Of a stretch of 64,000 nt of DNA, positions 42,087 through 63,717 are shown one piece after another (the first letter of the stretch is position 1; each line of letters begins with the position of its first letter). A program made the translations under genes and the position numbers. The notes beneath the pieces were generated by a model, which ran no database searches, was not told the DNA's origin, and saw only the letters and a list, made by a program, of their open reading frames with translations. This stretch comes from a virus. Location: IMG/VR virus record IMGVR_UViG_3300025289_000001. One strand, written 5' to 3'.

Positions 42087-42120
42087 AAAGGGATACTAAA
42101 TTAATAGTATCCCTTTTTTT
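42087..42120. terminator. bidirectional rho-independent terminator at the convergence of the two gene blocks
   Basis: AAAGGGATACTA (42087-42098), a 6-nt loop, then TAGTATCCCTTT (42105-42116). An A-run lies upstream and a T-run downstream, so the hairpin works on both strands. Confidence 0.75.
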
Positions 42121-45412: not shown

Positions 45413-46607
45413 TTTTCTTTTTCAATTTTATTAAGCAATCTTCCATATCTGTACAATATATAAGATTTAGATTATTTATATTTTCTATCATTCTTTCAAA
45501 CCATATTTCTTCTTGGGTTTCTTTAGTTCGTATAATAAATATATTTCCTATTTCACCATTATCACGAAGTCTTCCAATTCGTTGAATTAAGTCTTTATCT
45601 GTACTATAATATGACATTATAATACAATTATCTAAATCTTTTAAATTAGCACCTTGTTTTAATTTCTTAAAACTAGCGATTACTCTGATTTTATTATCAT
45701 CAAAAGCATGTCTTATTTGTAAATTTTTAGCTTCAGAATTTAAAGAACTAACTACATTAGGTGTTATTTGTAATAATATATCTAAACTATTACCAAATAT
45801 AATAGTTTTAGTTTGTAATTGACCTAATAATTTCTTAACTATAGTAATTTTAGATACTAAATTATACAAAATATTAGTTCGCTTACTAGCAGTAATTCTA
45901 ATCTTTAAATCTTTTAATACCTTATCTATAATAAACCACGACTTTTTGTGTTCTTTATCCCAATAACTATAAGCAGCTTTCTCTGTTTGAAAGAATCTCT
46001 TCTTATTATTTCCAGCATTTATAGTAGGATTTATATCATCTAATGAATGATCTATTACATATACATCTAGTTTTCTTGATGTTCCTTCAGTTTGACCTCT
46101 ATTCATTGAATATTTATAACATATAGGAGCAACTTGGTTCAATAAATCACCCTTAGTTATAATTTTCCCATCTACTATATATTCAGTTTTCTTAATAATA
46201 GTAGCTGATAGTCCTATAATAGCATCATAAGTATTATTAAAGTAAAATTTAGAATAAGCCAAACTTAAACTATCATGAATTTCATCCGCTATCACCAAAC
46301 CAAAATGTCTATTTTTCCATTTATATACAGTCTGATAACAATAAAACTGTAGATTATAATCATTTAAAACATCTCGATTAAAAATTTTATTATATTTTTT
46401 AATATCTTCTATTAAATCTACCTTTCTACTTATAGTTTCAGCTAAAAATAGATGAATATCATCATTTCTAGGCATTGTATATAATGCATGCAAACTAATA
46501 AAGGTCTTGCCTAGCCCAGTAATTATTTCACAGGTTCCAGTTTTACCTCTTTCTAACCACTTATTTAATGCTTCTTGTTGTATTTTATCTTTTAAAAGAT
46601 TATTCAT
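45402..46607 (-). CDS. superfamily-2 DEAD/DEAH-type (ResIII-like) helicase
   Basis: 401 aa. Walker A is TGLGKTF, motif II is IADEIHD, motif III is LSAT, and motif VI is QRIGRLRD. Confidence 0.75.
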   Translation of the reverse strand: MNNLLKDKIQQEALNKWLERGKTGTCEIITGLGKTFISLHALYTMPRNDDIHLFLAETISRKVDLIEDIKKYNKIFNRDVLNDYNLQFYCYQTVYKWKNRHFGLVIADEIHDSLSLAYSKFYFNNTYDAIIGLSATIIKKTEYIVDGKIITKGDLLNQVAPICYKYSMNRGQTEGTSRKLDVYVIDHSLDDINPTINAGNNKKRFFQTEKAAYSYWDKEHKKSWFIIDKVLKDLKIRITASKRTNILYNLVSKITIVKKLLGQLQTKTIIFGNSLDILLQITPNVVSSLNSEAKNLQIRHAFDDNKIRVIASFKKLKQGANLKDLDNCIIMSYYSTDKDLIQRIGRLRDNGEIGNIFIIRTKETQEEIWFERMIENINNLNLIYCTDMEDCLIKLKKKNEI

Positions 46608-46957
46608 TATTTAGTTACTTCTCTAGTATCACCACTACCATGTAAAGTATTTGTAGTTCGACGTTGAATTAATTTATTATAATTGACTGTCATAATATCT
46701 TCAAGTGAAATACCTATTTCATTACTAATAGCTGTAATATACCATAATACATCGCCTAATTCTTTATTTAATAAAAGTTTTATATCTTCTGATATGATTT
46801 TTTTATTTAAAAAATCATTATCTCTATATAATTTTTTTACTTTTTCAGCAACTTCTCCTGCTTCTCCTGTTAAACCTAATGCACAATATGCTAATCCAAC
46901 TTCTTTTGGATATATAGCTGTTAATTCAATTATTTTTTGGTATTCTTTTATATCCAT
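46607..46957 (-). CDS. MazG-like nucleoside triphosphate pyrophosphohydrolase
   Basis: 116 aa. GLTGEAGEVAEKVKK ... ELGDVLWY is the canonical all-alpha NTP-PPase pattern (E-x-x-E ... E-x-x-D). Confidence 0.8.
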   Translation of the reverse strand: MDIKEYQKIIELTAIYPKEVGLAYCALGLTGEAGEVAEKVKKLYRDNDFLNKKIISEDIKLLLNKELGDVLWYITAISNEIGISLEDIMTVNYNKLIQRRTTNTLHGSGDTREVTK

Positions 46958-47079: not shown

Positions 47080-47268
47080 TTAATTTTCTTCAATATTTAT
47101 AATTTCTAGAGCTTCACCATTTTTAGTATCAACCCATCCATCATTAGAATCAGCTTCTCCACTTAATACAAGTGCTTTAGCTATCTCTTCTGTTTCAGCT
47201 TTTACTATAAATGTTTCATGTTCATAACCTTCTATCCATCTAATAGTTTCTATTTTATAACTTTTCAT
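47080..47268 (-). CDS. small acidic hypothetical protein (62 aa)
   Basis: I prefer the ATG at 47268, 1 nt after the RNR stop, over the listed 47349 start, which lies inside the RNR gene. Confidence 0.5.
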   Translation of the reverse strand: MKSYKIETIRWIEGYEHETFIVKAETEEIAKALVLSGEADSNDGWVDTKNGEALEIINIEEN

Positions 47269-47269
47269 A

Positions 47270-49930
47270 TTACCCGCATTTAGAATTTCCACATGAACGG
47301 CATCTTGAACACCCTTCTTCAAATATAACATTATTACTACCACATTCATTACAAGTTATTGTAGATTTAGCTCCTTCAGGTATATATTTCTTTAATACTC
47401 TAGTAATTACTTTAGCAAAAGAAAACATATCTCCGTGAGTTTTACCTAATTGCTCTACAATAAACTTAATATCTGTACGATGACGAAGAGATGTAGAAAT
47501 TAATCTAGTGATTATTTCTTGTTCTGCATTCATCTCTGAAGTAATATCTTCAGAATATGTTTCTCCATATTTAATTAAATTATACTTTCCTTTCCCTTTT
47601 TTACAAAGTTCCATGGAAGTTTCATTAGTGAAATATGGTACTGCAAATACTTCATAAGGTTTATTATCTTGTAAACCTATAATTACATTCCATTTAACTC
47701 CTTGACTTGTTATTGTATGTATATCTACTGGAAGACAACTTGGTCTTTTAGTAGCATCTTTATATTCAAAAGATGTTATAGTAGGTTTATTAGAAACTAA
47801 TACACCACTTCTACTACCATCTCTATATACTGTAATACCTTTTAAACCTTTTTCCCAAGATTTCATATAGATATTAGAAACTTCTTCTTCAGATACATCA
47901 TTAGGTAAATTTATAGTAGAAGATATACTATGACTAATATATTTTTGAATAATAGATTGTATTTCAATTCTCTTATCCCAATCTATATCATTAGCTGTAC
48001 AATTATACCAAGGTGATAATTTAAAATATGTATCTAATTGTACTGTTTCAAAATATTCAATATCATCTACATCTTCTATTAAATATCCTTGTGGGGCATT
48101 TCCAATATAATAATATAACCAATCTTTAAATTTAGGATGAATTACAGGAAATTCTTGCCAAGAATCACCATTACCATCTACAAAATCAACTCTAATATCT
48201 TCATTAGGATTAACTTTCTTTCTTCTTGTATAGAAGGGTTGAAATAATGGTTCTACTCCTGAAGTAGTTTGTGTTAATAAAGATACAGTACCTGTTGGGG
48301 CAACTGTACTCCAACTAATATTTCTACGTCCATATTCATACATTCTTAAATATTGACTTGGAAATTCTATTTGTAAAAATTTATAAAAAGTATTAGAACC
48401 CACCGTTATATCATCTTTATCATCAGGATATTCTAATTGATTATTCCATCCTTCAAATGTACCTCTTAATATTGCTAAGTCAGTTGTACAATCTAATTCA
48501 GAACGCATTTTAACTTGCATTATTTGCTTTATAATTTCTAAAGCTTCCTCTGAATCATAATCTATATTTAAAGCTGCTAGAGTGTCTCCTAATGCTGTAA
48601 AACCTAATCCTGTTCTTCTACTTTGTATAGCTGTTTGTCTAATCTTTAACCAAAGAACTAATTCTCTTGCTTTAATTTCATTAGATTCAGGATCTTCTCG
48701 TAATTTATTAATAATTCTATCAATATGTTCTATTTCTAAATCAATTAAATCGTCACTAAGACGCATTGCTTTATAATTAATTTTATAGAATTTATCCATA
48801 TTAAATTTTGCATTTACTGTAAAAGGATTATCAACAAAACTGAATAAATTAACTGCAATTAATCTACAAGCATCATATTCTTGCATAGCAATTTCTGAAC
48901 ATGGATTAGTTGTAACTTGTTTAAATTGAGGATATACACTATCTGGACTATAGTCTAACATTATATCCCAATTCATAATACCAGGTTCTGCTACACTATG
49001 TGCAGATTTTATAATTTCATCCCAATATTCTTTAGCTTTAATTTTTTTAATATATTTCTCTTTCTCAGGGTCATCAGAAATAACCTTTAAAAGACTATTA
49101 TATTCTAATTGTTTAGGGTCTGGGTAATCTATATTAGAAGAACTTGTACAAGGAAACCTAAGAATATAATCTTCATTATTTTCTACAGCTTTCATAAATT
49201 CATTATTAAGCTTAATTGAAATATTAGCACCTGTTACTTGTGTTAAATCTCTTTTAATCTTAATAAATTCTAATATATCTGGATGATTAATATCCATACT
49301 TATCATTAATGCACCTCTTCTACCACCTTGAGCAACTTCTCTTGTAGTATTAGAAAATCTATGCATGAATGATACAGCACCTGTTGATGTTTTAGCTACA
49401 TTACTTACTTTAGTTCCGTCAGGTCTTAATGTTGAAATGTCAATTCCTACTCCACCTCTTCGTTTCATCAATTGAGCTAATTCTTCATCTTTTTGGAAGA
49501 TTCCACCATAAGAATCATCAGGTTGTCCTATAACAAAACAATTAGATAAACTACCAATAGTATTAGATCCTAATTGAGACATTATAGAACCTTGTGGTAT
49601 TATATATTTAAAATCTTTAAATAAATTATATATATTTTCTTCTAAATAATCTAATAATTTTTCTTTTGGTAATTCTTCATCATTTAATAATAATAAATCT
49701 TCTCCATAGTCTGATAATTTATTAACTTCTAATTGAAATTCTTTATTATCAAGATTATTAAATTTTTCTCTTTCTTCAAGTATATAATCATATTCTATTC
49801 TAGCAAATTCTTTTGCCATTCGATGATGCATATCATCAGGTGTTTCTTCACCTTCTTTTTGGTATTTACCTTGCCACACATTTGCAGCAAGGTCATCACC
49901 ATTAAAATATTTTAGTAATTTTTTATTCAT
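47270..49930 (-). CDS. nrdJ: ribonucleotide reductase, probably class II (adenosylcobalamin-dependent)
   Basis: 886 aa. Active-site motifs are TNPCSEI and GGRRGALM. The C-terminal CNECGS...EGCSRCRSCGNSKCG is the Cys-rich zinc finger described for most class II RNRs. No beta-subunit gene is present in the window. Confidence 0.75.
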   Translation of the reverse strand: MNKKLLKYFNGDDLAANVWQGKYQKEGEETPDDMHHRMAKEFARIEYDYILEEREKFNNLDNKEFQLEVNKLSDYGEDLLLLNDEELPKEKLLDYLEENIYNLFKDFKYIIPQGSIMSQLGSNTIGSLSNCFVIGQPDDSYGGIFQKDEELAQLMKRRGGVGIDISTLRPDGTKVSNVAKTSTGAVSFMHRFSNTTREVAQGGRRGALMISMDINHPDILEFIKIKRDLTQVTGANISIKLNNEFMKAVENNEDYILRFPCTSSSNIDYPDPKQLEYNSLLKVISDDPEKEKYIKKIKAKEYWDEIIKSAHSVAEPGIMNWDIMLDYSPDSVYPQFKQVTTNPCSEIAMQEYDACRLIAVNLFSFVDNPFTVNAKFNMDKFYKINYKAMRLSDDLIDLEIEHIDRIINKLREDPESNEIKARELVLWLKIRQTAIQSRRTGLGFTALGDTLAALNIDYDSEEALEIIKQIMQVKMRSELDCTTDLAILRGTFEGWNNQLEYPDDKDDITVGSNTFYKFLQIEFPSQYLRMYEYGRRNISWSTVAPTGTVSLLTQTTSGVEPLFQPFYTRRKKVNPNEDIRVDFVDGNGDSWQEFPVIHPKFKDWLYYYIGNAPQGYLIEDVDDIEYFETVQLDTYFKLSPWYNCTANDIDWDKRIEIQSIIQKYISHSISSTINLPNDVSEEEVSNIYMKSWEKGLKGITVYRDGSRSGVLVSNKPTITSFEYKDATKRPSCLPVDIHTITSQGVKWNVIIGLQDNKPYEVFAVPYFTNETSMELCKKGKGKYNLIKYGETYSEDITSEMNAEQEIITRLISTSLRHRTDIKFIVEQLGKTHGDMFSFAKVITRVLKKYIPEGAKSTITCNECGSNNVIFEEGCSRCRSCGNSKCG

Positions 49931-51820: not shown

Positions 51821-52321
51821 TTAAAAAATTTTAATATATACTCCTGGATTATTTGAATCCACAGAATACCATTTGGTTATTCTTATATTTTGTAAAGTGG
51901 GTAGTTCTCCATCTATAGACATAGGTATTGGAAATACATATTTGATATTATCATCTTCTATAAAATCATGAGCTGTAAATAAATCTTGTAATATTTCTAC
52001 ACTATTACTAAAATCAAATAAAGCTTTACTTTTTCTTACTTGATGATATCCTATAAATAAAGGATTATCTTTACCAACTTTCATTGCTTCAAATTGAGCC
52101 CTTATTGCTTCAATTTGATTTGGACGTGTTTTATCAACATATCCTTTTACTAGTTTATGTTTAGAACTAAAAGATTGTATACCCAAACTCCTAAGATATT
52201 TATTTACCGTAGGAGAACTGAATATACCTCTTTGTGTTTTAACTTTACTATTTTTTAAACTGGGTACTGACCCTGGTATCCATATCATTTGATTACCATG
52301 GGATACAACAGTCTGGTCCAT
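51821..52321 (-). CDS. RusA-like Holliday-junction resolvase (tentative)
   Basis: IPGSVPSLKNSK and DFSNSVEILQDLFTAHDFIEDDNIKYV resemble RusA PPSNN and DLDN...D...DD motifs. An alternative start at 52288 (MIWIPG) would remove the 29-nt overlap with the UDG gene. Confidence 0.4.
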   Translation of the reverse strand: MDQTVVSHGNQMIWIPGSVPSLKNSKVKTQRGIFSSPTVNKYLRSLGIQSFSSKHKLVKGYVDKTRPNQIEAIRAQFEAMKVGKDNPLFIGYHQVRKSKALFDFSNSVEILQDLFTAHDFIEDDNIKYVFPIPMSIDGELPTLQNIRITKWYSVDSNNPGVYIKIF

Positions 52322-53000
52322 TTATTTTTGCTATTAATTTGTTAATTTCTACAAAATGATTACAATTCCATTTTCTGTCTTCTTCAACAGCTTTTGTAGG
52401 ACTTTCACATTCAAAAATAAAATGCTTGTCTTCATTAATGTATTGTTTAAAATACTGAGCTTCTTCACCCCAAAGACAAAAAATAATATTAGTTTTATTT
52501 TTACTAATAGTTTTAATTACTTCACGAGTAAAATTTCTCCAATATTCTAAGTGACTTCCTGGTTTACCATCTTGAACAGTTAATGCAGAATTTAATAATA
52601 AAACACCTGCATATTCCCAAAATTCTAAAGTAGGTTCCATATTTATTCTAAGACCATTATTTATTTGTTCCTCTATTGTTTCAAGTATTTTAACTAATTC
52701 AGGTGAAAAGTTTTGTCCAACTTTATCATCATTTCCAAAAGCTAAACCTGTGGCATGTGATGTAAAATATGGCTCTTTACCTAATATTACTACTTGTAAA
52801 TCAGTAATAGGACAATAAAAAAATGAATCAAAGACTCTTATCTTATTAGGTGATATTCTTTGTACTTTATAACTTTCATTAATAAAATACATTAGATTAG
52901 TCATATATTCAGAAATGAGTAAGGGGTTTAACGCCCTTACCCATGCTTTTCCTAATAATGCTTCATAATCAATATCTAATTTATATTTTGGTGATATCAT
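52293..53000 (-). CDS. family-1 uracil-DNA glycosylase homologue with a non-canonical active site
   Basis: 235 aa. VVILGKEPYF aligns with E. coli VVILGQDPYH, GVLLLNSALTV with GVLLLNTVLTV, CESPT with HPSPL, and NCNHFV with GCNHFV. Confidence 0.7.
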   Translation of the reverse strand: MISPKYKLDIDYEALLGKAWVRALNPLLISEYMTNLMYFINESYKVQRISPNKIRVFDSFFYCPITDLQVVILGKEPYFTSHATGLAFGNDDKVGQNFSPELVKILETIEEQINNGLRINMEPTLEFWEYAGVLLLNSALTVQDGKPGSHLEYWRNFTREVIKTISKNKTNIIFCLWGEEAQYFKQYINEDKHFIFECESPTKAVEEDRKWNCNHFVEINKLIAKINGPDCCIPW

Positions 53001-53011
53001 TAGTTATATAA

Positions 53012-54787
53012 TTAAATTTGTAAATTCTCATCATCTTCATCATATGGATCATTATCAAAATTCATATCTAGAGGAGCTTCTACTTGATTATTTTCAATAT
53101 TTATATTTATATTACGATCTCCTCTATTTATATCCCATTCATGCATTCTAGCAACAGCATTTATTTCTTCTTGTCGTAGTAAACCATCTTCAAGAGCTTC
53201 AAATACTCCTCCTCTTCTTCCTCTTGCTCTAAATGGTTCATCTAGTACATTTATATAAGTTAATGGTGATTTAGACTCCTTAGGTGTGTTTTTTAACCAG
53301 AAAGTATCTCTTATATTAAAATCATCTTCATTAGCTTTAATATTACCTTTTTGAGCTTGATGGTACATAAAATTACGTCTAGTACTGATATAATACATTA
53401 AATTATCTAATAATCTATTAGAATTTTTAATATCTTTATTATTCATAATTGTACTATATAAAATATCAGAAAGAGATAAATTTGATACAGAACTAAAATC
53501 ATTTAAGATTTTAGCAGTATTATCTTTAACAAAATTAACAATTGAACCACATATAACTAAATAGTTTAATACTTTATCAATATCATAAGTAGGTGTATGT
53601 AGTCTAAACTCAATTGTTTGTTTGTTACCAAATAATAATGGAATTAAATTCACCCAATGATAACGAGTTCTAATATTCCACTTAGCTTCCCCTCTAGGAT
53701 CAGAAGGATGATATTTAACATTAGATAATTTACCACTAACATCACTATAATCTTGTCCCATTGAAAGATATTTATATAAAACATTAAAGTTTTCTTTAAT
53801 ATTACTATCATTTATCTTTCTATCTAATAAATACATACTTTCATTCAATGTGAATGGTTTAGTATAGTGTTTTTTCTTCACACCATAATTGTATTTTTTA
53901 TAGACTGGAAATAATTCAAATAATGAATTTTCTAATAAACATAACATTTTAAATAATGCTAACATAAACTCTTCAGTTCTTGGAACATTACCAATATGTA
54001 AATGTAATGAACAATCATTATCATAAATTGTTCGTTTAGATAATTGTTTAACTGAATCAATAATAGTTTGCATTCCTTTACTATTTTGTAGAGGAATAGT
54101 TACATATTCTAAACCTTGAATGCTACCATCTCTTAATGGTATTAATCCTAATTTATTACATAATCTTTCAGGAACATAACCATTAATTGTTTCAAATTCT
54201 AAACCAAAAGTTAACCCTTTTAATACCTCTCCATATTGTTTTATAGAGTCAATATATTTAGGTTCATATAATTCATTATATATACTTGATTTATTTGAGA
54301 TTAAATTATTTGAATCATATAATAAATTATTCTTAAATCCAGGTGGAATATTCCCAATTTTAGAAAATTTAGAACTTCTTATAGATTGTCTATGATAATA
54401 AATATTATCAGATAGATTTTCTTTAAAATTTGTATTTTCTAATATAGATTCATCCATACAAGGATATCTTTCATTTTTATAGCTAATTATAATAGAATCA
54501 TTATATTCAGATATAGAAAAATAACCTAAAGTAGGTGTATCTTTATCAGAAAAACCTATTATACCATATAATAAAGAAGTGTTATTTTTCACTACATATG
54601 TTTTTAAACTGTGATTATATACTATATATCCTGTATCTTGTTTATAATATTTTTCATTAATAAAATAACAATGACCAGAGTTTTCTATTGTAGGATCACC
54701 AATAATATAGAATTCACCTCTAATGTTTCTACATTTACTTTTTTCTACTACTGTACCATCAATGGTAAGTACTGTATCTTTATTCAT
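53012..54787 (-). CDS. Amidoligase_2-like (glutamine-synthetase-fold) amide ligase with extra N- and C-terminal regions
   Basis: 591 aa. LTFGLEFETINGY...PLRDGSIQGLEYVTIPL...CSLHLHIG follows the GxExE...D-x-S...E-x-v-S/T-P...H-x-H pattern of the putative amidoligase family. Confidence 0.6.
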   Translation of the reverse strand: MNKDTVLTIDGTVVEKSKCRNIRGEFYIIGDPTIENSGHCYFINEKYYKQDTGYIVYNHSLKTYVVKNNTSLLYGIIGFSDKDTPTLGYFSISEYNDSIIISYKNERYPCMDESILENTNFKENLSDNIYYHRQSIRSSKFSKIGNIPPGFKNNLLYDSNNLISNKSSIYNELYEPKYIDSIKQYGEVLKGLTFGLEFETINGYVPERLCNKLGLIPLRDGSIQGLEYVTIPLQNSKGMQTIIDSVKQLSKRTIYDNDCSLHLHIGNVPRTEEFMLALFKMLCLLENSLFELFPVYKKYNYGVKKKHYTKPFTLNESMYLLDRKINDSNIKENFNVLYKYLSMGQDYSDVSGKLSNVKYHPSDPRGEAKWNIRTRYHWVNLIPLLFGNKQTIEFRLHTPTYDIDKVLNYLVICGSIVNFVKDNTAKILNDFSSVSNLSLSDILYSTIMNNKDIKNSNRLLDNLMYYISTRRNFMYHQAQKGNIKANEDDFNIRDTFWLKNTPKESKSPLTYINVLDEPFRARGRRGGVFEALEDGLLRQEEINAVARMHEWDINRGDRNININIENNQVEAPLDMNFDNDPYDEDDENLQI

Positions 54788-54799
54788 TTTTATTATATA

Positions 54800-56695
54800 T
54801 TATTCATTTGTGTCAAATACTACTAATCTGGTTGTATCTACTAAAAAAGTATTTAATATATCAACTGCTTGGTCAGCTTTTTTATTATTTTTATACATTT
54901 CTAATCGTTTAATGTATAAAGGAAATTTAGCTAAACCTTCTTTAAATATATCATCTAAATCTTTTTCTAATAAATCATTATTATTCTCATCAGTTAATAA
55001 CATAATTGATCTATTATTATTCTTCTCTGCATCTACTACATTTTTTTCATTCTGAATAATAAGTTGACCTATATGTTTTAGACTATCTGATACTTTTACT
55101 TTTTTATCAATTCTTACACATTCACCATTTTTAAATGTATAAGTGAATTCTGAACCTAATGGACATACTACATCTGTAACTAATTTACCATTTACATATG
55201 ATTTTGGTGCTACAAATTTACTAGTTACATTTATATTAAATACAGGATGAGCAGAACATATTGACATTGATAAATAATCAAATTTAGCATCATAACTTGC
55301 CATATCTAAACAAGCTAAATAATCTATTCTTGTTTTAATCCTAATTCCATCATAAAAATAGTATATACGAGGTACTGAAATTTCATTACCTTTAGTACTA
55401 ATAAATGGTGTAATAACACGATTCATTTCTTCATTACTTAGTCCTTTTAAATCACGAAGAAATGATTTATCTAAAAATGGTTTATTAACTAAATTAAAAA
55501 ATGATTGTTCAGATTCTTTAATATTATCTCCTAAGAAATAGAATCCAAAATCAGTAATCCAAGTATAACATCCAGTAATTAAATGTCCATTTCTCCAATA
55601 TCTCATTTTATTAAAATAAATAGGACTATTATATTGACGATTTTTAGGTATATATATTTCATTTCCTAAATTAATACCATTTGGGTTTAATCTTAATATG
55701 GTCTGACGAGGATTATCTTCTTCTGTTTCTATGTTTTCTTTTTTTCTTTTTTCCTCTGCCAAAGCCTTTTTTTCATCTTCAACAATTTGTAAAGCAGTTT
55801 TCTTTTTATCTATAGAATGACCAAAAGCATTATCATAATAATCTTCATCATCCCATGCATCTCTATCATTTTTTAAATAAGGATGTCTACCAGTATATGC
55901 AGGAGCTATATAAGATTGATAATTATTACTTCTATCTATTATAGTTTTTTCTGCTTTTTCTACTTCACCATCAGTTATTTTATAAACTGTATTATGGTCA
56001 AAAGAATGAATGGTATCCACTGTTCCACCAATAGCATATAAACTACTTTCCATTGATGAAATATATACACTATTTTTACTTTCTTGATAATAAAATAAAG
56101 GACGTTCTTCTACTGCTAAATGACTGTTATTAGCTTTATTAGATTCACCATGATAACAATATATCACATTAGGCTCATTTAAATTTGAAAATACTAATGC
56201 TGCAGCACCATTATATTGAGATAGAACATCATAATTTTTCTTTGTAAAAACAATTTCTAATAATATTTCACTATCTATTTTAGTTCTAGTAATAGTAGAA
56301 TTATGTTTATGAGTAATATGTGTTAATGATATATCATTTAATTTTGCAATTTCATGATGATTTATAAGGGTACCATTATGTACCCCTACAAATTCATAAT
56401 GATCATTTACTTCACCAAATCCAAATGGATGAGCATTTTCTACTGTATGTGCACCATATGTACTTGCCCGTGTATGTCCAATTACTGTTGGAAATAATTT
56501 AGGTGCATCATAGTTTACATTACTAAGAAAATCTTTATATACTTTATTTTTATCAATACCAATACTAATCTCTCCATCTTTAGTTATCCCACAAGAATGT
56601 GTTCCCCTTGCTTCATTAAAAATTCCAAGGATATCAAGTTTAGTTTTATTAAATTTTTTAGGGTCTTTTCCTGACCACGCAAAGATTCCACACAT
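54800..56695 (-). CDS. class II (Ntn) glutamine amidotransferase fused to an unknown ~380-aa C-terminal domain
   Basis: 631 aa. The motifs are MCGIFAW (Cys2 nucleophile), HTRASTYG, NAHPF, VHNGTLINHHEI and DSEILLE. No PP-loop (SGGxDS) or sugar-isomerase motif lies downstream. Confidence 0.75.
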   Translation of the reverse strand: MCGIFAWSGKDPKKFNKTKLDILGIFNEARGTHSCGITKDGEISIGIDKNKVYKDFLSNVNYDAPKLFPTVIGHTRASTYGAHTVENAHPFGFGEVNDHYEFVGVHNGTLINHHEIAKLNDISLTHITHKHNSTITRTKIDSEILLEIVFTKKNYDVLSQYNGAAALVFSNLNEPNVIYCYHGESNKANNSHLAVEERPLFYYQESKNSVYISSMESSLYAIGGTVDTIHSFDHNTVYKITDGEVEKAEKTIIDRSNNYQSYIAPAYTGRHPYLKNDRDAWDDEDYYDNAFGHSIDKKKTALQIVEDEKKALAEEKRKKENIETEEDNPRQTILRLNPNGINLGNEIYIPKNRQYNSPIYFNKMRYWRNGHLITGCYTWITDFGFYFLGDNIKESEQSFFNLVNKPFLDKSFLRDLKGLSNEEMNRVITPFISTKGNEISVPRIYYFYDGIRIKTRIDYLACLDMASYDAKFDYLSMSICSAHPVFNINVTSKFVAPKSYVNGKLVTDVVCPLGSEFTYTFKNGECVRIDKKVKVSDSLKHIGQLIIQNEKNVVDAEKNNNRSIMLLTDENNNDLLEKDLDDIFKEGLAKFPLYIKRLEMYKNNKKADQAVDILNTFLVDTTRLVVFDTNE

Positions 56696-56703
56696 CTATT
56701 TTT

Positions 56704-57507
56704 TTATTTTGTAATTAGTTTTAATTCTTTTAATTTTTCTATTTCATTTAATAATAAACGTGCATTTGGTTTATCATTTTGATTAATTGTTCTTTGAATT
56801 TCTGAATCATATTTTTCAATAATTTCATCAATAATTCCATTATTAATTAATGCAATAGCTTCTAATGATTTATTATAAGCCCATGTAATTGATTCATCTG
56901 TTTTAATCCAAAAATTAGATAAAGTTCTATATTCTACACCAAAGTTTTTAAATCTAAAACAACCAGCTTTACCATACATTTCTTTTCTTCTATCATCTGG
57001 ATCTAATAAAATAGATTCTAAACCTAAAACAGCATCCATTGCATATATAATTTTTTCACTAAGTTCTTGTGTTGGGTTATCATAACCTATATGAATATGT
57101 CCACCACAAGTTCTTAATTTACCACCACCTTTTGGAGGTGTATTCATTGCTTTCAAATAAACATTATAATCAGGTTCACAACCAAATAATTTAGCTTGAG
57201 GTGTATTTAAATATTTTGGATCAATTTCTGCAGATGCAGAATAGTTTAATTTACATCCACGTAAATCAGCTAATATATTTAAATAATCTTTTACGAAATT
57301 AATATTATTAACAAATTCCTCTGCTGAGTCAGATGCAGGGATATTGAATTCAACCATAATATTATCTTCTTGTATAGCGTGACCTTTATCACTAATAGGT
57401 GTTGGTGCATATTTAGTACCTCCTATTAATCCTTCAGCTGAAACAATTTCTCCATTTCTTTCTAAAAATAATTCAGGGTCTGTTCCAATAAGAATATTCT
57501 TTATCAT
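56704..57507 (-). CDS. phiEco32-type COOH-NH2 ligase (GS-like amidoligase, type 2)
   Basis: 267 aa with the motifs IGTDPELFL, QEDNIMVEFNIPA, GGHIHIGY and GVEYRTLSN. Confidence 0.6.
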   Translation of the reverse strand: MIKNILIGTDPELFLERNGEIVSAEGLIGGTKYAPTPISDKGHAIQEDNIMVEFNIPASDSAEEFVNNINFVKDYLNILADLRGCKLNYSASAEIDPKYLNTPQAKLFGCEPDYNVYLKAMNTPPKGGGKLRTCGGHIHIGYDNPTQELSEKIIYAMDAVLGLESILLDPDDRRKEMYGKAGCFRFKNFGVEYRTLSNFWIKTDESITWAYNKSLEAIALINNGIIDEIIEKYDSEIQRTINQNDKPNARLLLNEIEKLKELKLITK

Positions 57508-57508
57508 T

Positions 57509-58177
57509 TTATTGTGTAATTAAATATTTATTAATTAATTGTAAAATATAGTTTTTAGTTTTTTCTGGACATGTACTAAATTCAGGATGACCTTGTATAC
57601 ATAATGATTTAGTTTTATTATAATACACAATCTCTGGTTCTAAAAATGCATCAGGTAAAGTAATTTCAGTATTTTCACCATTTAAATATGTATTACTTTT
57701 AAAAAATTCAGACCAAGCAATGAATTCAAATTCTTGTTCTTTCATATTATAAGGATACATCATTTGATGATGAGTTGAAGTAATTTCATAAATTGAACCT
57801 GGTTGTGTTTCAATTGTATGATTTCCACTATGACCTGTAACATGTTGAACTAATTTACCTCCACTCATTACAGTAAGAAATTGTGCACCTCTACATATTC
57901 CTAATTTAGGAACACGATAGTAATTATTCCACATATTTGATTCTTCTTCATCCCTTTTAGTATCAATACCTGTATATTGTCCTATTTTTTCATTATAATA
58001 TGCAGGATTTACATCTGCACCTCCTGTAAAAAGTAAAAAATCAATTTGATGTGCACTATAATCTTTTAATTTATTAAATGGTACAAATGTAGCATTAAAT
58101 TTTGACATTAAAAAGTTAGCATAATCATTATTAAAATGGTTATCAACTCCAATAATTAATTCTTTTTTATTCTGCAT
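57509..58177 (-). CDS. class I glutamine amidotransferase-like / peptidase C26 gamma-glutamyl hydrolase
   Basis: 222 aa. The nucleophile elbow is LGICRGAQFL, and His/Glu are in CIQGHPEF. Confidence 0.7.
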   Translation of the reverse strand: MQNKKELIIGVDNHFNNDYANFLMSKFNATFVPFNKLKDYSAHQIDFLLFTGGADVNPAYYNEKIGQYTGIDTKRDEEESNMWNNYYRVPKLGICRGAQFLTVMSGGKLVQHVTGHSGNHTIETQPGSIYEITSTHHQMMYPYNMKEQEFEFIAWSEFFKSNTYLNGENTEITLPDAFLEPEIVYYNKTKSLCIQGHPEFSTCPEKTKNYILQLINKYLITQ

Positions 58178-59042
58178 TATATTTTTGTTTTAATAATTTT
58201 GTTAGTTCTTCTTTATATTTAATAAGAGTAATATCCCCAAAAGATGGAGCTGAATTAATTTCTACAATAATAAAATCAGGTTCTTCTCTTTCTCTACCTC
58301 TACTATCTTTAGCACCTTGAATTCTTAAATCTATTGCACCTATATCTAATCCTACAGCATTTAAAGCTTTAACTGATTCAGCTACAATATTATCCCAATT
58401 CTTAGGTCTATCAAATAAATCATTTTCTTCTAAGATCCACACACAATGTGCATCATTACGATACCATTTATCTTCATCTGCAGTATCTTCTTTTAACATT
58501 TTTCTACAAGAATAGAAACAACCATTTTGAGATATATGTAATCTATATTCTCTAGTATAGTTATAATATTTTTCAAATATATAATGGGTTAAGTCTTTAC
58601 CTCTCATCCATTCTTGTAATTCTTCAATAGAATCATGTTTTTTATTACCTTGATTTCTACTCCCAAAATGAGATTTAGAGATAATAGGATAAGGTAAATC
58701 TTCTAATGAATATACTGGAAAATGATCTTCATCATTAATTCTTTGAATAAATTGAACAAATTCACCATTTCTAGCTATTTGAGCAACAAACCAATCTGCT
58801 GTTTTTACATTATTTTCAGTAAAACAATTTTTCATCTTATATTTACTAGATGAATTTTGAACACCTTCTATCGTATTAATTTCTATTCTATTACCACCAT
58901 TTGTTACTGTATCACGTAAATCTGTAGTAGAACCAAATCTAATTACAGATCTAAAAGGTAATAATTCAAATGTACCTCGTTGTCTTAAAGGTGAATGAGA
59001 TGGATGTCTACTTCTAATTTTTGGTCTAAAATTGTTTCTCAT
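58167..59042 (-). CDS. ATP-grasp ligase (RimK-related type)
   Basis: 291 aa. IISKSHFGSRNQG...REYRLHIS...GLDIGAIDLRI...FIIVEINSAPSFG follows the ATP-grasp pattern. Confidence 0.6.
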   Translation of the reverse strand: MRNNFRPKIRSRHPSHSPLRQRGTFELLPFRSVIRFGSTTDLRDTVTNGGNRIEINTIEGVQNSSSKYKMKNCFTENNVKTADWFVAQIARNGEFVQFIQRINDEDHFPVYSLEDLPYPIISKSHFGSRNQGNKKHDSIEELQEWMRGKDLTHYIFEKYYNYTREYRLHISQNGCFYSCRKMLKEDTADEDKWYRNDAHCVWILEENDLFDRPKNWDNIVAESVKALNAVGLDIGAIDLRIQGAKDSRGREREEPDFIIVEINSAPSFGDITLIKYKEELTKLLKQKYNAE

Positions 59043-59422
59043 TTATTGTAACTTTTTTCTTTTAAATAATCTTCCCAATCACCATCTATTACTTGATTAT
59101 ATCCACCTACTTTATGAGGAAATATATAAATATAAGCTTCTCCATAAGGTGTATCAATAGTATCTCGTAAATAATGACTTCTTCCTGTATTTGATGGATT
59201 ATATCCTTCTAATCTATCAACATCTACAAGCATTTTTTGATTTATTCTATATACTTCTAAAACAATAGAAGTATTTCCATTTTTTATAAGTCCAGGATAT
59301 GAACCTAAGTCATACATACTATATTCAGGTAAACTATCAAATTTTCCTAAATATGTAGCATTTTCAATTATTAAATGATTATGTAATCCTTTTCTTAGAC
59401 TACCATATACTGCTATTAACAT
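59039..59422 (-). CDS. gamma-glutamyl cyclotransferase (AIG2/GGACT-like)
   Basis: The listed start at 59449 is a TTG. The ATG at 59422 gives MLIAVYGSLRKGLHNH..., the canonical family N-terminus. YPGL and DRLEGY are also present. Confidence 0.7.
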   Translation of the reverse strand: MLIAVYGSLRKGLHNHLIIENATYLGKFDSLPEYSMYDLGSYPGLIKNGNTSIVLEVYRINQKMLVDVDRLEGYNPSNTGRSHYLRDTIDTPYGEAYIYIFPHKVGGYNQVIDGDWEDYLKEKSYNK

Positions 59423-59432
59423 ATTTTTATTT

Positions 59433-60461
59433 TTAAAATGGTACTGCAATCATATTTTTTAATATATTTACAGCTTTGTTTTTTCCTAAATTTTTAATTA
59501 AATCACTGAAATCTTTAGATTGATATTTTTCATCTATTTCAACTTGTAATAAATCAAATGTTTCTGATAAAGATTTACCAAATTGTCGTCCCCAATTAGT
59601 TTCTTTATCAAAATCATTATCATATAGAAGGAATATATTTTCAAATCTATCTTTTAATTCTTGGATAATATATTCTTTAGGATGTACTGATTCTGATTGT
59701 AATGCTACTGCAGAAATATTAGTAGTGTTATTTACAATAGCCATTACATCTTTTAAAGATTTAGTAATTATTAATGTTTTTCCTTTTTCTGGTAATTGTT
59801 CCCACCCTTGCCATACAGAATCATTATGGTTATTTAACCATTTAAAATCTGTATTATAAGGTTGATATATTTTATATGTTTCTTTTCCATCTTTATGTTC
59901 AATAAATGCATAAGCATATTTATGTACATAAATAGGATTACCATTAATAAAAATATATTCAATTGGTTCAACTTTATATTTTAATAATGTAGCTTCATCT
60001 ATACCATATTGTAACCAAAAAGCATAATCTTGAGCTACCCAATTTCTTCGTTTTTTTCCTAATTCTAAAGGTTTATTATTATTTAAAACATCTTCCTTAT
60101 TTCTAAATAAATTAGGATTATAAACACCTTCACTTTTTTCTATAGATCTCACTATAAAATGTTCATCAATATTAAAATCTATTGCGATTTTACTTAATGC
60201 TTCAAAATAATTTAGTTTAAATTTTAACTGTACAAATTTAACAAAATCTCCAGCTCCAATCAACCAATCTTTAAAACAAATTTCACCACTTTCACCAATA
60301 AAATATCCAAATGAAGGATTGTTATCTTCACGTAATGGAGAATTTGTAATTACTTTTAATTCTACATCTTGTCCTGTATAAAATCTATATACTGATATAT
60401 CATCAATATAATTTAGTAATCCAGCTTTTGTTACTAATTTTTTATTTAAATCTATTGTCAT
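59433..60461 (-). CDS. DnaG/TOPRIM-type primase with a degenerate (Cys-poor) zinc-binding region
   Basis: 342 aa. SPLREDNNPSFGYF...GEICFKDW aligns with CPFHxExTPSF...CFGC, but only one Cys is retained. The TOPRIM-like part is LIITKSLKDVMA ... LLYDNDFD. Confidence 0.55.
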   Translation of the reverse strand: MTIDLNKKLVTKAGLLNYIDDISVYRFYTGQDVELKVITNSPLREDNNPSFGYFIGESGEICFKDWLIGAGDFVKFVQLKFKLNYFEALSKIAIDFNIDEHFIVRSIEKSEGVYNPNLFRNKEDVLNNNKPLELGKKRRNWVAQDYAFWLQYGIDEATLLKYKVEPIEYIFINGNPIYVHKYAYAFIEHKDGKETYKIYQPYNTDFKWLNNHNDSVWQGWEQLPEKGKTLIITKSLKDVMAIVNNTTNISAVALQSESVHPKEYIIQELKDRFENIFLLYDNDFDKETNWGRQFGKSLSETFDLLQVEIDEKYQSKDFSDLIKNLGKNKAVNILKNMIAVPF

Positions 60462-60471
60462 AATTTAATGT

Positions 60472-60498
60472 AAAAAAAGGGGATATTTCTATCCCCTT
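60472..60498 (-). terminator. rho-independent terminator (minus strand) after the SSB-like gene
   Basis: The minus strand reads AAGGGGATAGAAATATCCCCTT followed by TTTTTTT. Confidence 0.7.
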
Positions 60499-61893: not shown

Positions 61894-62352
61894 TTAATTA
61901 TTTATAATTTCATCAAATGTTACATCTAAATTATGAAAGTTTTGAGTATCCATTGTTAAATATTTACATTCTGCTTTAAATGTTTGCCAATATGCACTAC
62001 CTCTAAAATTATATTTACGAATATCAGGACAATAATTGTACATAAATCCAGCACCATTTGTTCGCCCTGCTTCATATTTTATAATTTCAAATAATATATC
62101 TTTAATTCTAGATTTAGGAAAATAAAATTTAGATAATTTAATAATATCATCTAATGAACGATATCTATCATAATCACATTGTAATCCACCTCTAACAAAA
62201 TATGTTTCTATTGGATCTTGTTTTAAATCTATTGTATAATATAATATATCTTCAATAGATTTTATTATAACATCATCTTTAAATCTAATTTTTCTTATTT
62301 TATTATAATAGATTTCTAAATCTTTTATTGTTGTCACATCTTTTTTAGTCAT
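61894..62352 (-). CDS. hypothetical protein
   Basis: The listed first codon at 62355 is GTG, and the next codon (62352) is ATG. 152 aa, no motif. Confidence 0.55.
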   Translation of the reverse strand: MTKKDVTTIKDLEIYYNKIRKIRFKDDVIIKSIEDILYYTIDLKQDPIETYFVRGGLQCDYDRYRSLDDIIKLSKFYFPKSRIKDILFEIIKYEAGRTNGAGFMYNYCPDIRKYNFRGSAYWQTFKAECKYLTMDTQNFHNLDVTFDEIINN

Positions 62353-62758
62353 CACTTTTATTTATTATATCTAAGCATTTTACTTTTCCATTAAAATAAA
62401 TTGTATCAGCTATAATTTGGATAAATTTAATATGTTTATTATGTTTTAAACCATATTTAATTTCAGCTTTTACACCTGTAGAGTTTTTTAAATACTCTAT
62501 ACCTTCTTTAGGTATTAATACCCAAATTTCATCACACCAATCAACAAATTGATAATCAATATGTTGCCAATAATCCCATGTATGAGGTACTGTATAACCT
62601 TCTAATAATGTTAATGGGTGTGAATGAGTAATAGGACTAAATACATTTAATCCTTTATTTAGAATTAATACAGATGCTTTATTAGCTTGTTCAAAACTAC
62701 TTTCAACCATACCTGTATATGGAATTGCTAAATATATTTTCTTTAATTGCTTATTCAT
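62345..62758 (-). CDS. DUF1937-like protein (nucleoside 2-deoxyribosyltransferase-like fold)
   Basis: 137 aa. IYLAIPYTG...NVFSPITHSHPL...WDYW...CDEIWVL...STGVKAEI matches my recollection of the DUF1937 consensus. Confidence 0.6.
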   Translation of the reverse strand: MNKQLKKIYLAIPYTGMVESSFEQANKASVLILNKGLNVFSPITHSHPLTLLEGYTVPHTWDYWQHIDYQFVDWCDEIWVLIPKEGIEYLKNSTGVKAEIKYGLKHNKHIKFIQIIADTIYFNGKVKCLDIINKSDD

Positions 62759-63387: not shown

Positions 63388-63717
63388 TTACAAATCTTTT
63401 AAATTTTTATCTATAAATCTATCATCTAAATCTTTTCTAAACATAGTCATATAAGATAAAAACATAGCGTTACACAATATATGTCCTACATGTGATAATT
63501 TACTTTCTTTATCATTATCTTCTCCTTCTAAAAAAGAATTCATATGACGTTGTAGACTTTCACAAGTTTCTGTATATTTTAATCCTTTTTTCCAATTATG
63601 ATCATCATATTTTTCAGCACCAAACATTAGAACCTGTACTAAAGGTTCTAATGCTCTCCAACTGACTAATGACCATTTCAATTTATTATTATTAAATCGA
63701 CTACCTAATCCTTCCAT
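63388..63717 (-). CDS. dATP/dGTP diphosphohydrolase-like (DUF5664, MazG-related) protein
   Basis: 109 aa. KLKWSLVSWRALEPLVQVLMFGAEKYDDHNWKKGL...SHVGHILCNAMFL matches the family pattern (K-x-R/K-W-x-L...FGAxKY...NW.KG...H...CN). Confidence 0.6.
   Translation of the reverse strand: MEGLGSRFNNNKLKWSLVSWRALEPLVQVLMFGAEKYDDHNWKKGLKYTETCESLQRHMNSFLEGEDNDKESKLSHVGHILCNAMFLSYMTMFRKDLDDRFIDKNLKDL

Follow-up and report, generated by a model that had tools for sequence, protein, structure and literature searches.

A marine crAss-like phage carries a copy of the conserved, phage-restricted gamma-glutamyl amide/amidoligase cassette

The cassette found in phages of the phiEco32, LUZ24-PaP3, RIO-1 and PSA-HP1 types is called the 'gamma-glutamyl amide operon' or the 'putative peptidoglycan modification cassette' (Iyer et al. 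2009; Hardies et al. 2013). Three later papers (PMC10580990, PMC11318856, PMC5498523) cite Iyer et al. (2009) for this very cassette, which bears out the comparative-genomic amidoligase prediction mentioned in the preliminary description of our locus. In Pseudoalteromonas phage HP1 the cassette is transcribed immediately on infection (PMC7082346). A literature search found no substrate, product or phenotype for any cassette copy, in agreement with the earlier remark that no product had been determined experimentally. The closest cultured copy is g037-g041 of Cellulophaga phage phi14:2 (Crassvirales, Akihdevirus). The cassette is widespread and already known: it was named in print in 2009 and 2013 and is annotated in this nearest cultured relative.

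The window analysed here is the whole stretch of 64,000 nt, which matches an uncultured 98.5-kb metagenome contig. The carrier is a marine crAss-like phage related to the cultured phage phi14:2. In the ORF list, six consecutive genes lie back-to-back on the minus strand at positions 53012-59422. The preliminary description gave junctions of -4, -11, +1, +8 and +12 nt, an exact match to the ORF coordinates, and all the motifs quoted there are present in the translations (VYGSLRKG and DRLEGY; GICRGAQF and QGHPE; GTDPELF, EDNIMVEFNIPA and GGHIHIGY; MCGIF; GLEFE and CSLHLHIG). Profile searches upheld all six family calls, and the catalytic motifs are intact. A primase gene is located 10 nt upstream of the run and a uracil-DNA glycosylase (UDG) gene 11 nt downstream. 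The same slot and order are found in phi14:2 (primase, GGCT, ATP-grasp, COOH-NH2 ligase, GAT-II fusion, amidoligase, UDG, RusA-like, exonuclease). Its GAT-II and amidoligase are the same long forms (32-35% identity), and the atypical GKEPY motif of our UDG recurs in that of phi14:2; however, phi14:2 has no C26 gene and its proteins are only about 32-38% identical to ours.

Five core families (COOH-NH2_lig type 2, Amidoligase_2, GAT-II, ATP-grasp and GGCT) are shared with the phiEco32/LUZ24-PaP3/RIO-1/PSA-HP1 cassettes, which sit together beside a primase in the early or replication arm and whose COOH-NH2 ligases are 32-45% identical to ours. The gene order differs (Y-G-C-L-N-A in the crAss-like locus, L-x-A-N-G-Y in the podophage type), as does the carrier genome (crAss-like, ~98 kb, versus podophage, 45-77 kb). 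Unlike the phiEco32-type cassettes, the crAss-like locus includes a C26 hydrolase, and its amidoligase and GAT-II bear clade-specific extra domains; it does not contain the podophage-specific ~200-aa protein (phrog_4877) or the two upstream proteins of ~320-400 aa. The 'operon' of the preliminary description is putative; the six genes are not delimited from the primase or the UDG as an operon of their own. The sole terminator-like hairpin on the minus strand of the 42-64 kb block is at 60477-60498, upstream of the primase. The entire minus-strand block is packed as tightly as the six genes, so tight spacing alone means no more than chance.

Co-occurrence was counted in 47 IMG/VR viral loci in which the COOH-NH2 ligase is flanked by at least 7 kb on either side. 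All 47 contained GAT-II and Amidoligase_2, 45 contained ATP-grasp, 32 GGACT and 33 C26. 'Trimming' is not obligatory, since roughly one complete locus in three lacks GGACT and a similar share lacks C26. Three distinct gene orders were seen, in unrelated phage lineages, and the same gene set is found in a gut crAss-like phage, PaP3, phi14:2, a Leptolyngbya cyanophage and Kuravirus SU10. Conservation of the neighbourhood, a check proposed in the preliminary description, was thus found across related phages and in unrelated lineages too. Co-occurrence of these families in unrelated phages is far beyond chance, and by this measure the six genes are a genuine unit. Other lineages have extra conserved proteins of unknown fold within the cassette. 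PaP3 orf44, with its C-terminal Glu, was considered as a tag candidate and rejected (only 3 loci, terminal Glu not conserved). A search of 185,579 species, one genome each, gave only 32 matches, nearly all on MAG contigs that are probably mis-binned phage DNA. The cassette is almost exclusively phage-restricted.

The GGACT/AIG2-like gamma-glutamyl(amine) cyclotransferase gene (59039-59422, minus strand as for all six) encodes 127 aa from the ATG at 59422. The ORF is open to a TTG at 59449; the 127-aa form was also chosen by gene callers on identical metagenome contigs. Profile searches matched PF06094 (5.1e-18) and phrog_2520 (1.4e-24), and alignment to E. coli YtfP (1xhs; 5e-18) places the YGSL motif and the EVYRI Glu in register. 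The enzyme is of the GGACT (amine) type and not the ChaC or GGCT type. The 222-aa product of 57509-58177 is, by its profile matches, a Peptidase_C26/class-I GATase-fold gamma-glutamyl hydrolase (PF07722 at 4.9e-18, PF00117 at 8.9e-8) which keeps the GICRG nucleophile elbow and the HPE motif. Its best solved relative is P. aeruginosa 7d4r (2e-4), deposited as 'probable glutamine amidotransferase', which we take to be SpuA, a gamma-glutamyl hydrolase of the polyamine pathway. The best NCBIfam match, the gamma-glutamyl-CDP-amidate hydrolase Cj1417 (8e-10), is sub-threshold with 39 bits against a cut-off of 250.

The gene at 58167-59042 encodes a 291-aa protein, an ATP-grasp carboxylate-amine ligase of the amino-acid/peptide-ligase type. 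A Pfam search gave no match; phrog_2599 was matched at 2.5e-30, and sub-threshold NCBIfam matches were rimK_fam (2.9e-5), MptN, CofF and LysX. Among solved structures, the family profile matched a PurD-like enzyme (the top match), cyanophycin synthetase, RimK and Ddl, with E-values from 1e-10 to 1e-8. K67, E165, R167, K181, D238, E261 and N263 are invariant, E261 and N263 being the E-x-N Mg site. The phiEco32-type COOH-NH2 ligase (type 2; 56704-57507, 267 aa) matched PF14395 at 1.1e-9 and, across its full length, phrog_3815 at 9.3e-78. It is 41-45% identical to the gut crAss-like cr108_1 and Pseudomonas podophage copies and 36-38% identical to that of phi14:2, with D10, E12, D48, N49, E53, R132, H137, H139, E192 and R194 invariant; no solved relative was found by sequence search. 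Amidoligase_2 (53012-54787, 591 aa; PF12224 at 1.4e-6, phrog_2443 at 5.3e-44) is a GS/GCL-fold carboxylate-amine ligase. Its catalytic core (aa ~190-500) lies between an all-beta domain at the N-terminus (aa 1-135, nt 54383-54787) and a disordered tail (aa 501-591, nt 53015-53287) whose acidity is family-wide. With its AF2 model (pLDDT 85, pTM 0.81), Foldseek weakly matched GshF (top), glutamine synthetase, GCL and YbdK, at 3e-4 to 1e-2, and PafA/Dop more weakly still (about 0.08 to 0.2). E197, E199, H262, H264, R395 and H397 are invariant. Neither GS-fold ligase had an NCBIfam match up to E 0.1. GS-fold ligases such as PuuA, GCL, YbdK and PafA activate the gamma-carboxylate of glutamate.

The 631-aa GAT-II fusion protein (54800-56695) consists of an Ntn class-II glutamine amidotransferase domain (55910-56695, aa 1-262; PF13522, GATase_6, at 1.1e-8) and an orphan C-terminal domain. 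The AF2 model of the amidotransferase domain (pLDDT above 90) matched GlmS, GFAT, PurF, AsnB and EgtC in Foldseek at 1e-11 to 5e-8. R76, N107-G108 and D141 are invariant in the family and Cys2 is retained in at least 90% of sequences; by comparison with GlmS, these are presumably the gamma-glutamyl-binding residues. A disordered, charged linker (aa 266-355) precedes the orphan domain (54803-55627), which is confidently folded in the AF2 model as an alpha/beta module (aa ~357-535) and a helical bundle (539-626). No Pfam match or PDB sequence match was found for this domain, and 1.84 billion representatives yielded 143 matches, all at the corresponding position of the same ~600-680 aa architecture. 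Among cassette loci it is confined to the phi14:2-like crAss clade; other lineages have unrelated extensions in its place. No signal peptides or transmembrane segments were found in the six products, and all are most likely soluble cytoplasmic enzymes, as predicted from their sequences.

Precedents for such chemistry are known. In the PuuA/PuuD and Pseudomonas PauA/SpuA pathways, a GS-fold ligase gamma-glutamylates an amine and a Peptidase_C26 hydrolase takes the glutamyl off. The phage cassette shares this ligase and C26 pairing, with 7d4r as the nearest solved C26 relative, but it has no oxidase or dehydrogenase steps, its ligases are not PuuA orthologues (no NCBIfam match), and three ligases plus GAT-II are more than this catabolism requires. 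In the butirosin (BtrJ/BtrG) and ergothioneine (EgtA/EgtC) systems, an ATP-grasp or GCL-type ligase adds a gamma-glutamyl protecting group, which is removed by BtrG (AIG2/GGACT-type) or EgtC (a stand-alone Ntn GAT-II). EgtC is one of the GAT-II fold matches, but the cassette lacks a carrier protein, decarboxylase, sulfoxide synthase or other tailoring enzyme, and the likeness is of logic, not orthology. The 'build-and-trim' idea of the preliminary description agrees with the activities of the families involved. GGACT, C26 and GAT-II point to terminal gamma-glutamyl-amine intermediates, because the cyclotransferase is GGACT-type and not ChaC-type, because the C26 protein is nearest to 7d4r and gamma-glutamyl-CDP-amidate hydrolase, and because GAT-II retains the alpha-carboxylate and alpha-amino anchors. 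Against a low-molecular-weight substrate it may be said that family membership is a poor predictor of specificity; protein-acting enzymes (PafA, RimK, LysX) also occur among the GS-fold and ATP-grasp ligases.

The targets proposed earlier were a metabolite, a protein and a nucleotide or DNA base, a list that left out the cell wall favoured in the literature. Peptidoglycan modification is the working hypothesis in PMC5498523, PMC11945000, PMC10580990 and PMC11318856, all of which cite Iyer 2009 or Hardies 2013. The ligases and amidotransferase might alter stem-peptide precursors by extra or unusual amide linkages or by amidation of D-Glu/mDAP carboxylates, yielding a wall that shuts out superinfecting phages or is prepared for lysis; we consider this unlikely. 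The gamma-glutamyl linkage does occur in stem peptides, Ddl is among the ATP-grasp matches, all named hosts among the matches listed are Gram-negative with an mDAP-type wall, superinfection exclusion is consistent with early expression, and UDP-MurNAc-peptide or lipid II could be accessible to cytoplasmic enzymes. GAT-II-type AsnB1/LtsA amidate mDAP. The proposal is purely inferential, however. GGACT, C26 and GAT-II require a gamma-glutamyl group whose alpha-amino group is free, whereas the stem-peptide D-iGlu is N-acylated by L-Ala and of D configuration; no cassette ligase belongs to the Mur or Fem families; membrane and periplasmic components are absent from the cassette; and we reason that the laying of new wall per cycle in a lytically arrested cell is questionable. 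It is distinctly improbable that the ligases instead tag proteins of the host or phage with glutamate or a short peptide, as RimK, LysX or PafA do, and that the hydrolases remove or recycle the tag as Dop does. Pupylation (PafA/Dop) and RimK/LysX resemble the cassette in pairing GS-fold or ATP-grasp ligases with a bond-undoing hydrolase, the best ATP-grasp matches include RimK and LysX/ArgX, PafA and Dop are among the amidoligase fold matches, the all-beta domain and acidic tail of the amidoligase could mediate protein contacts, and Iyer et al. (2009), by its title, discusses peptide tagging. The 'RimK-like' wording of the preliminary description is weak, the RimK score of 23.6 bits being far below the family cut-off of 143; the fold matches to PafA/Dop, with E about 0.08 to 0.2, are weak too, and no conserved small carrier or tag protein was found in cassette loci. 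The trimming enzymes come from small-molecule families, and GGACT and C26 are, to our knowledge, small-molecule enzymes in every characterised case.

It is very unlikely that the cassette serves a glutathione-like cycle, in which the phage would produce and recycle a gamma-glutamyl thiol or tripeptide, perhaps to supply its ribonucleotide reductase (RNR) redox chain, or a general reprogramming of nitrogen and amino acids by shuttling glutamine/glutamate nitrogen. The fold repertoire parallels glutathione synthesis and the gamma-glutamyl cycle (GshA, GshB/GshF, GGT, GGCT) with a GCL-like ligase, an ATP-grasp synthetase, an Ntn hydrolase and a GGCT; the bifunctional glutathione synthetase GshF is the best amidoligase fold match; and a class-II-like RNR lies 3 kb downstream of the cassette. 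In phage ZRK32 the ATP-grasp enzyme is annotated as glutathione synthase and a role in nitrogen metabolism was proposed (PMC10945688), but its growth-promotion claim is no test of the enzymes. There is no sequence-level membership: neither GS-fold ligase matches GshA, both being matchless in NCBIfam, and the ATP-grasp protein does not match GshB there. Two GS-fold ligases are superfluous for a glutathione route, the Ntn enzyme is GAT-II and not GGT, the cyclotransferase is again of the wrong type, and proteobacterial and cyanobacterial hosts already produce glutathione. Most Bacteroidota are not known to use glutathione. An amide-linked glutamyl or peptidyl adduct on a nucleotide or on phage DNA, read or spared by the adjoining UDG, is highly improbable. 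The crAss-like cassette does lie between a primase and an atypical UDG, in which the catalytic Asp is replaced by Glu and the His187 equivalent is lost; Cj1417, the best NCBIfam match of the C26 protein, has a nucleotide-linked gamma-glutamyl amide as its substrate; the three folds also serve purine synthesis (PurF GAT-II, PurD/PurK ATP-grasp, PurQ GATase-I), and a PurD-like structure tops the ATP-grasp matches; PRPP synthetase adjoins the cassette in cyanophage Lbo-JY46, and MazZ-like, MazG and DUF4406 genes are nearby. The UDG position noted in the preliminary description is correct, but the tie to the UDG and the nucleotide block is one of position and is restricted to crAss-like phages, podophage and third-type loci having no UDG, so a DNA-base target is weakly supported. 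Gut crAss-like copies retain a canonical UDG, the Cj1417 match is far under its cut-off, and the 42-64 kb block yielded no gene for a hydroxymethylase, a base kinase, DpdA or an aGPT-Pplase-like protein. The DNA of LUZ24/PaP3 and phiEco32 has been handled with ordinary restriction enzymes and sequencing.

We give about an even chance to an early, cytoplasmic pathway that builds and trims low-molecular-weight gamma-glutamyl-amine or peptide-like intermediates, and we infer its substrates, step order, timing in the marine crAss-like phage and purpose as follows. The six products would be made alongside early or replication genes. COOH-NH2_lig, Amidoligase_2 and the ATP-grasp ligase would each use ATP to activate a carboxylate and couple it to an amine, the recurrent building block likely being glutamate as a gamma-glutamyl unit. 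The Ntn GAT-II would bind a free gamma-glutamyl group and either pass glutamine-derived ammonia to its clade-specific C-terminal domain or a partner ligase, or hydrolyse gamma-glutamyl amides in an EgtC-like way; the C-terminal domain, an orphan in the crAss-like locus, should set the acceptor. The terminal gamma-glutamyl would be removed by GGACT as 5-oxoproline, or by C26 as glutamate, leaving the free amine in both cases. The marine crAss-like phage locus is a copy of a conserved, horizontally mobile, phage-restricted gamma-glutamyl amide/amidoligase cassette, in which the gamma-glutamyl group may serve as both building block and removable handle. The substrate would be a short peptide or an amine of low molecular weight, with cell-wall precursor peptides, polyamine-like amines and a new metabolite as candidates.

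The six minus-strand genes at 53012-59422 are a further copy of a known, biochemically uncharacterised phage cassette, here with a Peptidase_C26 (C26) gene added and with clade-specific domain fusions. The preliminary description had read the cluster correctly and the finding is real, yet it is not new. All six family calls made there were upheld by Pfam, PHROG and profile searches. The signature gene, a phiEco32-type COOH-NH2 ligase, matches PF14395 (38.3 bits vs. a cut-off of 25) and phrog_3815 over its full length (9e-78), and its catalytic residues are invariant; sequence searches returned no solved relative for it. The GGACT protein matches PF06094 (66 bits vs. a cut-off of 22.8) and E. 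coli YtfP (5e-18). The C26 protein matches PF07722 (66 bits vs. a cut-off of 20.5), and its translation carries GICRG and GHPE at the G-x-C-x-G and H-P-E contexts of the triad. Its nearest solved relative is 7d4r, deposited as 'probable glutamine amidotransferase', which we take to be SpuA; the nearest NCBIfam model is the Cj1417-type gamma-glutamyl-CDP-amidate hydrolase, a sub-threshold match. GATase_6 on the class-II glutamine amidotransferase (GAT-II) fusion and Amidoligase_2 are above the Pfam thresholds, and the PHROG match of the amidoligase spans the catalytic core. The ATP-grasp protein has no Pfam match and hits phrog_2599 at 2.5e-30. A profile of 19 cassette ATP-grasp homologues matches a PurD-like enzyme, cyanophycin synthetase, RimK, Ddl and LysX at 1e-10 to 1e-6, and the protein is predicted to be an amino-acid or peptide ligase. 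Membership of the RimK family (TIGR00768) was rejected (23.6 bits vs. the curated cut-off of 143.4). GshA/GshB membership of the ligases was rejected as well: neither the COOH-NH2 ligase nor the amidoligase matched any NCBIfam model, and GshB is absent from the ATP-grasp matches. No signal peptide or membrane segment was predicted in any of the six proteins.

AlphaFold models of the GAT-II fusion and the amidoligase, built on deep metagenomic alignments, are confident (pLDDT about 85). The GAT-II protein begins with MCGIF, the Cys directly after the initiator Met, and its N-terminal part is modelled as a textbook Ntn domain with fold matches to GlmS, PurF, AsnB and EgtC (down to 1e-11). Across 55 sequences the glutamine-pocket residues R76, N107-G108 and D141 never vary, and at least 90% of them keep Cys2. 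Next come a disordered, charged linker and a C-terminal module that is confidently folded in the model and for which a profile search found no Pfam family and no PDB relative. An exhaustive HMMER search of 1.84 billion representative proteins found this module confined to the architecture of the fusion itself. Foldseek matches obtained with the whole fusion model were dominated by the Ntn domain. The amidoligase is modelled as an all-beta N-domain, a GS/GCL-like core and a disordered acidic tail. The core gave weak Foldseek matches to GshF (E 3e-4), GS, GCL and YbdK; PafA/Dop matched more weakly still. The last ~90 residues (window 53015-53287, minus strand) are predicted to be disordered and have a strongly acidic end (...DNDPYDEDDENLQI). 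Across the family the tail varies in sequence and keeps its acidity: the median net charge of the final 40 residues is -5.

The ORF listing reproduced six consecutive minus-strand genes within 6.4 kb, with junctions of -4, -11, +1, +8 and +12 nt, and all motifs quoted in the preliminary description were found in the translations. The order is GGACT (59039-59449, with the ATG at 59422 chosen by gene callers on identical public contigs), ATP-grasp (58167-59042), C26 (57509-58177), COOH-NH2 ligase (56704-57507), GAT-II fusion (54800-56695) and Amidoligase_2 (53012-54787). The cluster had been called an operon of six. The six adjacent genes and their tight junctions stand, but the boundaries were an assumption, because the whole 42-64 kb minus-strand block, primase and UDG included, is equally compact and tight packing is no peculiarity of the cassette. 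The cassette is separated by 10 nt from the primase upstream and by 11 nt from the UDG downstream. Upstream of the primase, between it and a 189-aa ORF, the minus strand has a perfect 9-bp GC-containing hairpin with a T-run after it (60477-60498). No other terminator-like site lies near the cassette on this coding strand. The transcription unit holding the cassette probably starts at the primase, with this hairpin marking the start, and continues through the UDG. A sigma-70 promoter scan gave no signal over shuffled background, with a model unsuited to this host and phage type. The co-directional block is the replication arm, with RNR, helicase, exonuclease and UDG in it and the primase adjoining the cassette. 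The same replication-arm, primase-adjacent position is found in the podophages PaP3 and SU10, in Cellulophaga phage phi14:2 and in the gut crAss-like phage cr108_1.

The window is from a crAss-like phage: its GC content is ~27%, the plus strand encodes giant virion proteins and the minus strand holds a replication block. Gene orientation flips at ~42060-42120, where the plus-strand virion genes (ORFs of 1295-2734 aa among them) meet the convergent replication block of the minus strand; GC skew and AT skew both reverse sign there. No near-identical DNA was found in cultured phages. The exact cassette proteins are also present on a 98.5-kb metagenome contig, and hundreds of full-length homologues are found on contigs of about 100 kb, Tara Oceans data among them. 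The closest cultured relative for the cassette is phi14:2, which carries GGCT, ATP-grasp, COOH-NH2 ligase, GAT-II and amidoligase in the same slot, from primase to UDG/RusA/exonuclease, but lacks the C26 gene of the window. At the same locus, cr108_1 carries the cassette plus two additional uncharacterised proteins. We interpret the crAss-type cassette as accessory genes inserted into a replication module that is conserved in crAss phages. With the added C26 and clade-specific domain fusions, it is fixed in a marine crAss-like clade at the same locus as in phi14:2, and phi14:2 is therefore a tractable model. An amidoligase search of 50,697 phage records returned five matching records from only three phages (phi14:2, cr108_1 and a cyanophage), so the long amidoligase form is rare in this collection; from this we infer that the crAss-type cassette is rare there too.

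INPHARED has 314 phage records with the signature COOH-NH2 ligase, their hosts including Pseudomonas, Escherichia, Vibrio, Aeromonas, Proteus and Salmonella, and virome sequences add many more. PaP3 and LUZ24-like phages, Kuravirus SU10 (a phiEco32 relative) and Leptolyngbya phage Lbo-JY46 carry the same families. Through this ligase 80 IMG/VR loci were fetched, and their ORFs were labelled by iterative HMM searches. Of these loci, 47 extend at least 7 kb to either side of the ligase; GAT-II and Amidoligase_2 are present in all 47, ATP-grasp in 45, C26 in 33 and GGACT in 32. Three gene orders recur among the IMG/VR loci. With Y for GGACT, G for ATP-grasp, C for C26, L for COOH-NH2 ligase, N for GAT-II, A for Amidoligase_2 and x for an unlabelled gene, these are primase-Y-G-C-L-N-A-UDG (crAss type), L-x-A-N-G-Y (podophage type) and C-L-x-G-Y-N-A-N (third type). 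Because of these counts and orders the cassette core is four genes (L, N, A and G), to which GGACT and C26 are often added as accessories.

Further conserved but uncharacterised proteins inside the cassette differ from lineage to lineage. Between the COOH-NH2 ligase and the amidoligase, phrog_4877 (~200 aa) was matched in PaP3 and SU10 (comparison loci L002 6800-7378 and L007 9808-10425), and we take it to be the same as a ~227-aa family at that position in 24 loci. By hhalign and BLASTP it shows no similarity to the amidoligase N-domain, the GAT-II C-domain or C26, and was rejected as a split-off part of any of them. Gut crAss-like cassettes have two paralogous ~320-aa proteins (locus L001 5457-7358), which, like phrog_4877, have no detectable similarity to any core family. 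The Lbo-JY46 cassette (PP438436, locus L004 648-10222) lies directly after a PRPP synthetase gene and contains three Peptidase_C26 paralogues, a 536-aa ATP-grasp protein and a 729-aa GAT-II fusion.

A scan of prokaryotes, with one genome for each of 185,579 species, gave 32 COOH-NH2 ligase copies, nearly all on MAG contigs, many of them phage-like in size; these copies are probably mis-binned phage DNA. The cassette is effectively phage-only and essentially absent from cellular genomes. Nine of the 32 matches (L089-L091, L097, L098, L099, L107, L108 and L111) are in MAG bins assigned to Saccharibacteria, Patescibacteria or other CPR lineages. Possibly low-GC phage contigs were binned wrongly here; the matches could also hint at CPR-bacteria phages with the cassette. 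PADLOC models of defence and anti-defence systems gave no match.

The UDG next to the cassette (52293-53000, minus strand) is family-1-like and matches TIGR00628 at 8e-45 (153 bits, below the 185.75 cut-off). GKEPY replaces the catalytic GQDPYH motif (Asp to Glu), and the catalytic His is lost since SPTKAV stands in place of HPSPLS. Both changes are common to the window and phi14:2; gut crAss-like copies keep GQDPYP/HPAYFC. Judged by these motifs, the UDG of the window may be inactive or altered in specificity. Elsewhere in the replication block (all minus strand) are a MazZ-like dATP/dGTP diphosphohydrolase N-domain protein (63388-63717, PF18909 at 3.6e-31), a DUF1937/DUF4406 protein (62345-62758) and a MazG pyrophosphohydrolase (46607-46957). 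DUF1937/DUF4406 proteins resemble nucleoside 2-deoxyribosyltransferases. These are nucleotide-pool editing genes, of a kind known from phages that have non-canonical bases. Together, an RNA ligase carrying a PHA02142 OB-fold domain (42878-43948) and the two calcineurin-like phosphoesterases after it (43950-44627 and 44630-45412, all minus strand) look like an RNA (tRNA) repair module.

The glutamate gamma-carboxylate is the near-universal activation target of GS-fold ligases (GS, GCL, PuuA, PafA). GGACT-type enzymes free amines from gamma-glutamyl-amines, and C26 enzymes (PuuD/SpuA, folyl-polyglutamate hydrolase, Cj1417) hydrolyse gamma-glutamyl amides. From their sequences, the three ATP-dependent carboxylate-amine ligases of the cassette have intact metal and ATP residues, and the GAT-II, C26 and GGACT pockets are predicted to recognise a terminal gamma-glutamyl whose alpha-amino and alpha-carboxylate groups are free. 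The simplest interpretation is a cytoplasmic pathway that would use gamma-glutamyl as both building block and removable handle on a small amine or peptide, as happens in the Puu/Spu polyamine route, in ergothioneine synthesis (EgtA/EgtC) and in butirosin synthesis (BtrJ/BtrG). A protein target is possible as well, and the cassette ligases would then attach a tag, but the cassette has no conserved carrier or tag. The small PaP3 orf44, which ends in Glu, was considered as a LysW- or Pup-like carrier and rejected, as it occurs at three loci alone and its terminal Glu is not conserved.

A DNA or nucleotide target is the least supported alternative and has a low probability. The Cj1417-like match of C26, the PRPP-synthetase neighbour in Lbo-JY46 and a PurF/PurD-like fold logic point towards it, but the UDG adjacency vanishes outside crAss-like phages and a canonical UDG is kept beside the gut crAss-like copies; the UDG neighbour is a trait of crAss-like lineages, outside the cassette system. 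Nor did the 42-64 kb block yield base-modification genes: Pfam found no base hydroxymethylase, base kinase, aGPT-Pplase or DpdA-type transglycosylase among its submitted ORFs (lists of at least 60-70 aa, without the short ORF 47080-47349), and the plus-strand half of the window was sampled against PHROGs. The target list of the preliminary description lacked the cell-wall hypothesis present in the literature. Peptidoglycan modification is possible at precursor level, but fits poorly with trimming enzymes that require a free L-gamma-glutamyl terminus. Extending the gamma-glutamyl pathway, we consider it unlikely, as a specific proposal, that the cassette is a phage-exclusive route, common to hundreds of cultured phages (therapeutic Pseudomonas podophages as well as gut and ocean crAss-like phages), to a gamma-glutamyl-linked small molecule, even a nucleotide- or polyamine-linked one, which the phage would make within the first minutes of infection for host takeover, counter-defence or exclusion.

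The comparative-genomic prediction mentioned in the preliminary description exists: the cassette is already in the literature (Iyer et al. 2009 and Hardies et al. 2013, as cited in later papers), and Iyer et al. (2009) is the origin of the Pfam family name. Later work named it a 'seven-gene peptidoglycan modification cassette', conserved in RIO-1, phiEco32, 7-11, PA11, tf, MR299-2, LUZ24, PaP3 and CW02 (PMC5498523), and in 2025 it was still termed 'putative' (PMC11945000). Other authors have speculated on a role in nitrogen metabolism (PMC10945688) or secondary metabolites (PMC11706807). HP1, in which the cassette is transcribed immediately after infection (PMC7082346), is the one phage with a literature report of early transcription. 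The product had been described as unknown, in agreement with the literature searched, where we found no experimental product or phenotype of the cassette.

To the knowledge of the cassette the window adds the C26 and fusion variant fixed at the phi14:2 locus, phi14:2 as a model and the UDG as a lineage trait, and little else. The cassette is among the most widely shared enzyme blocks without assigned function in virulent phages. The cultured carriers phi14:2, LUZ24 and phiEco32 are the best place to attack the question of its product. That product has been a guess for more than 15 years; once identified, it would explain an early infection step in therapy phages (LUZ24/PaP3 group, Kuravirus) and in abundant crAss-like phages.
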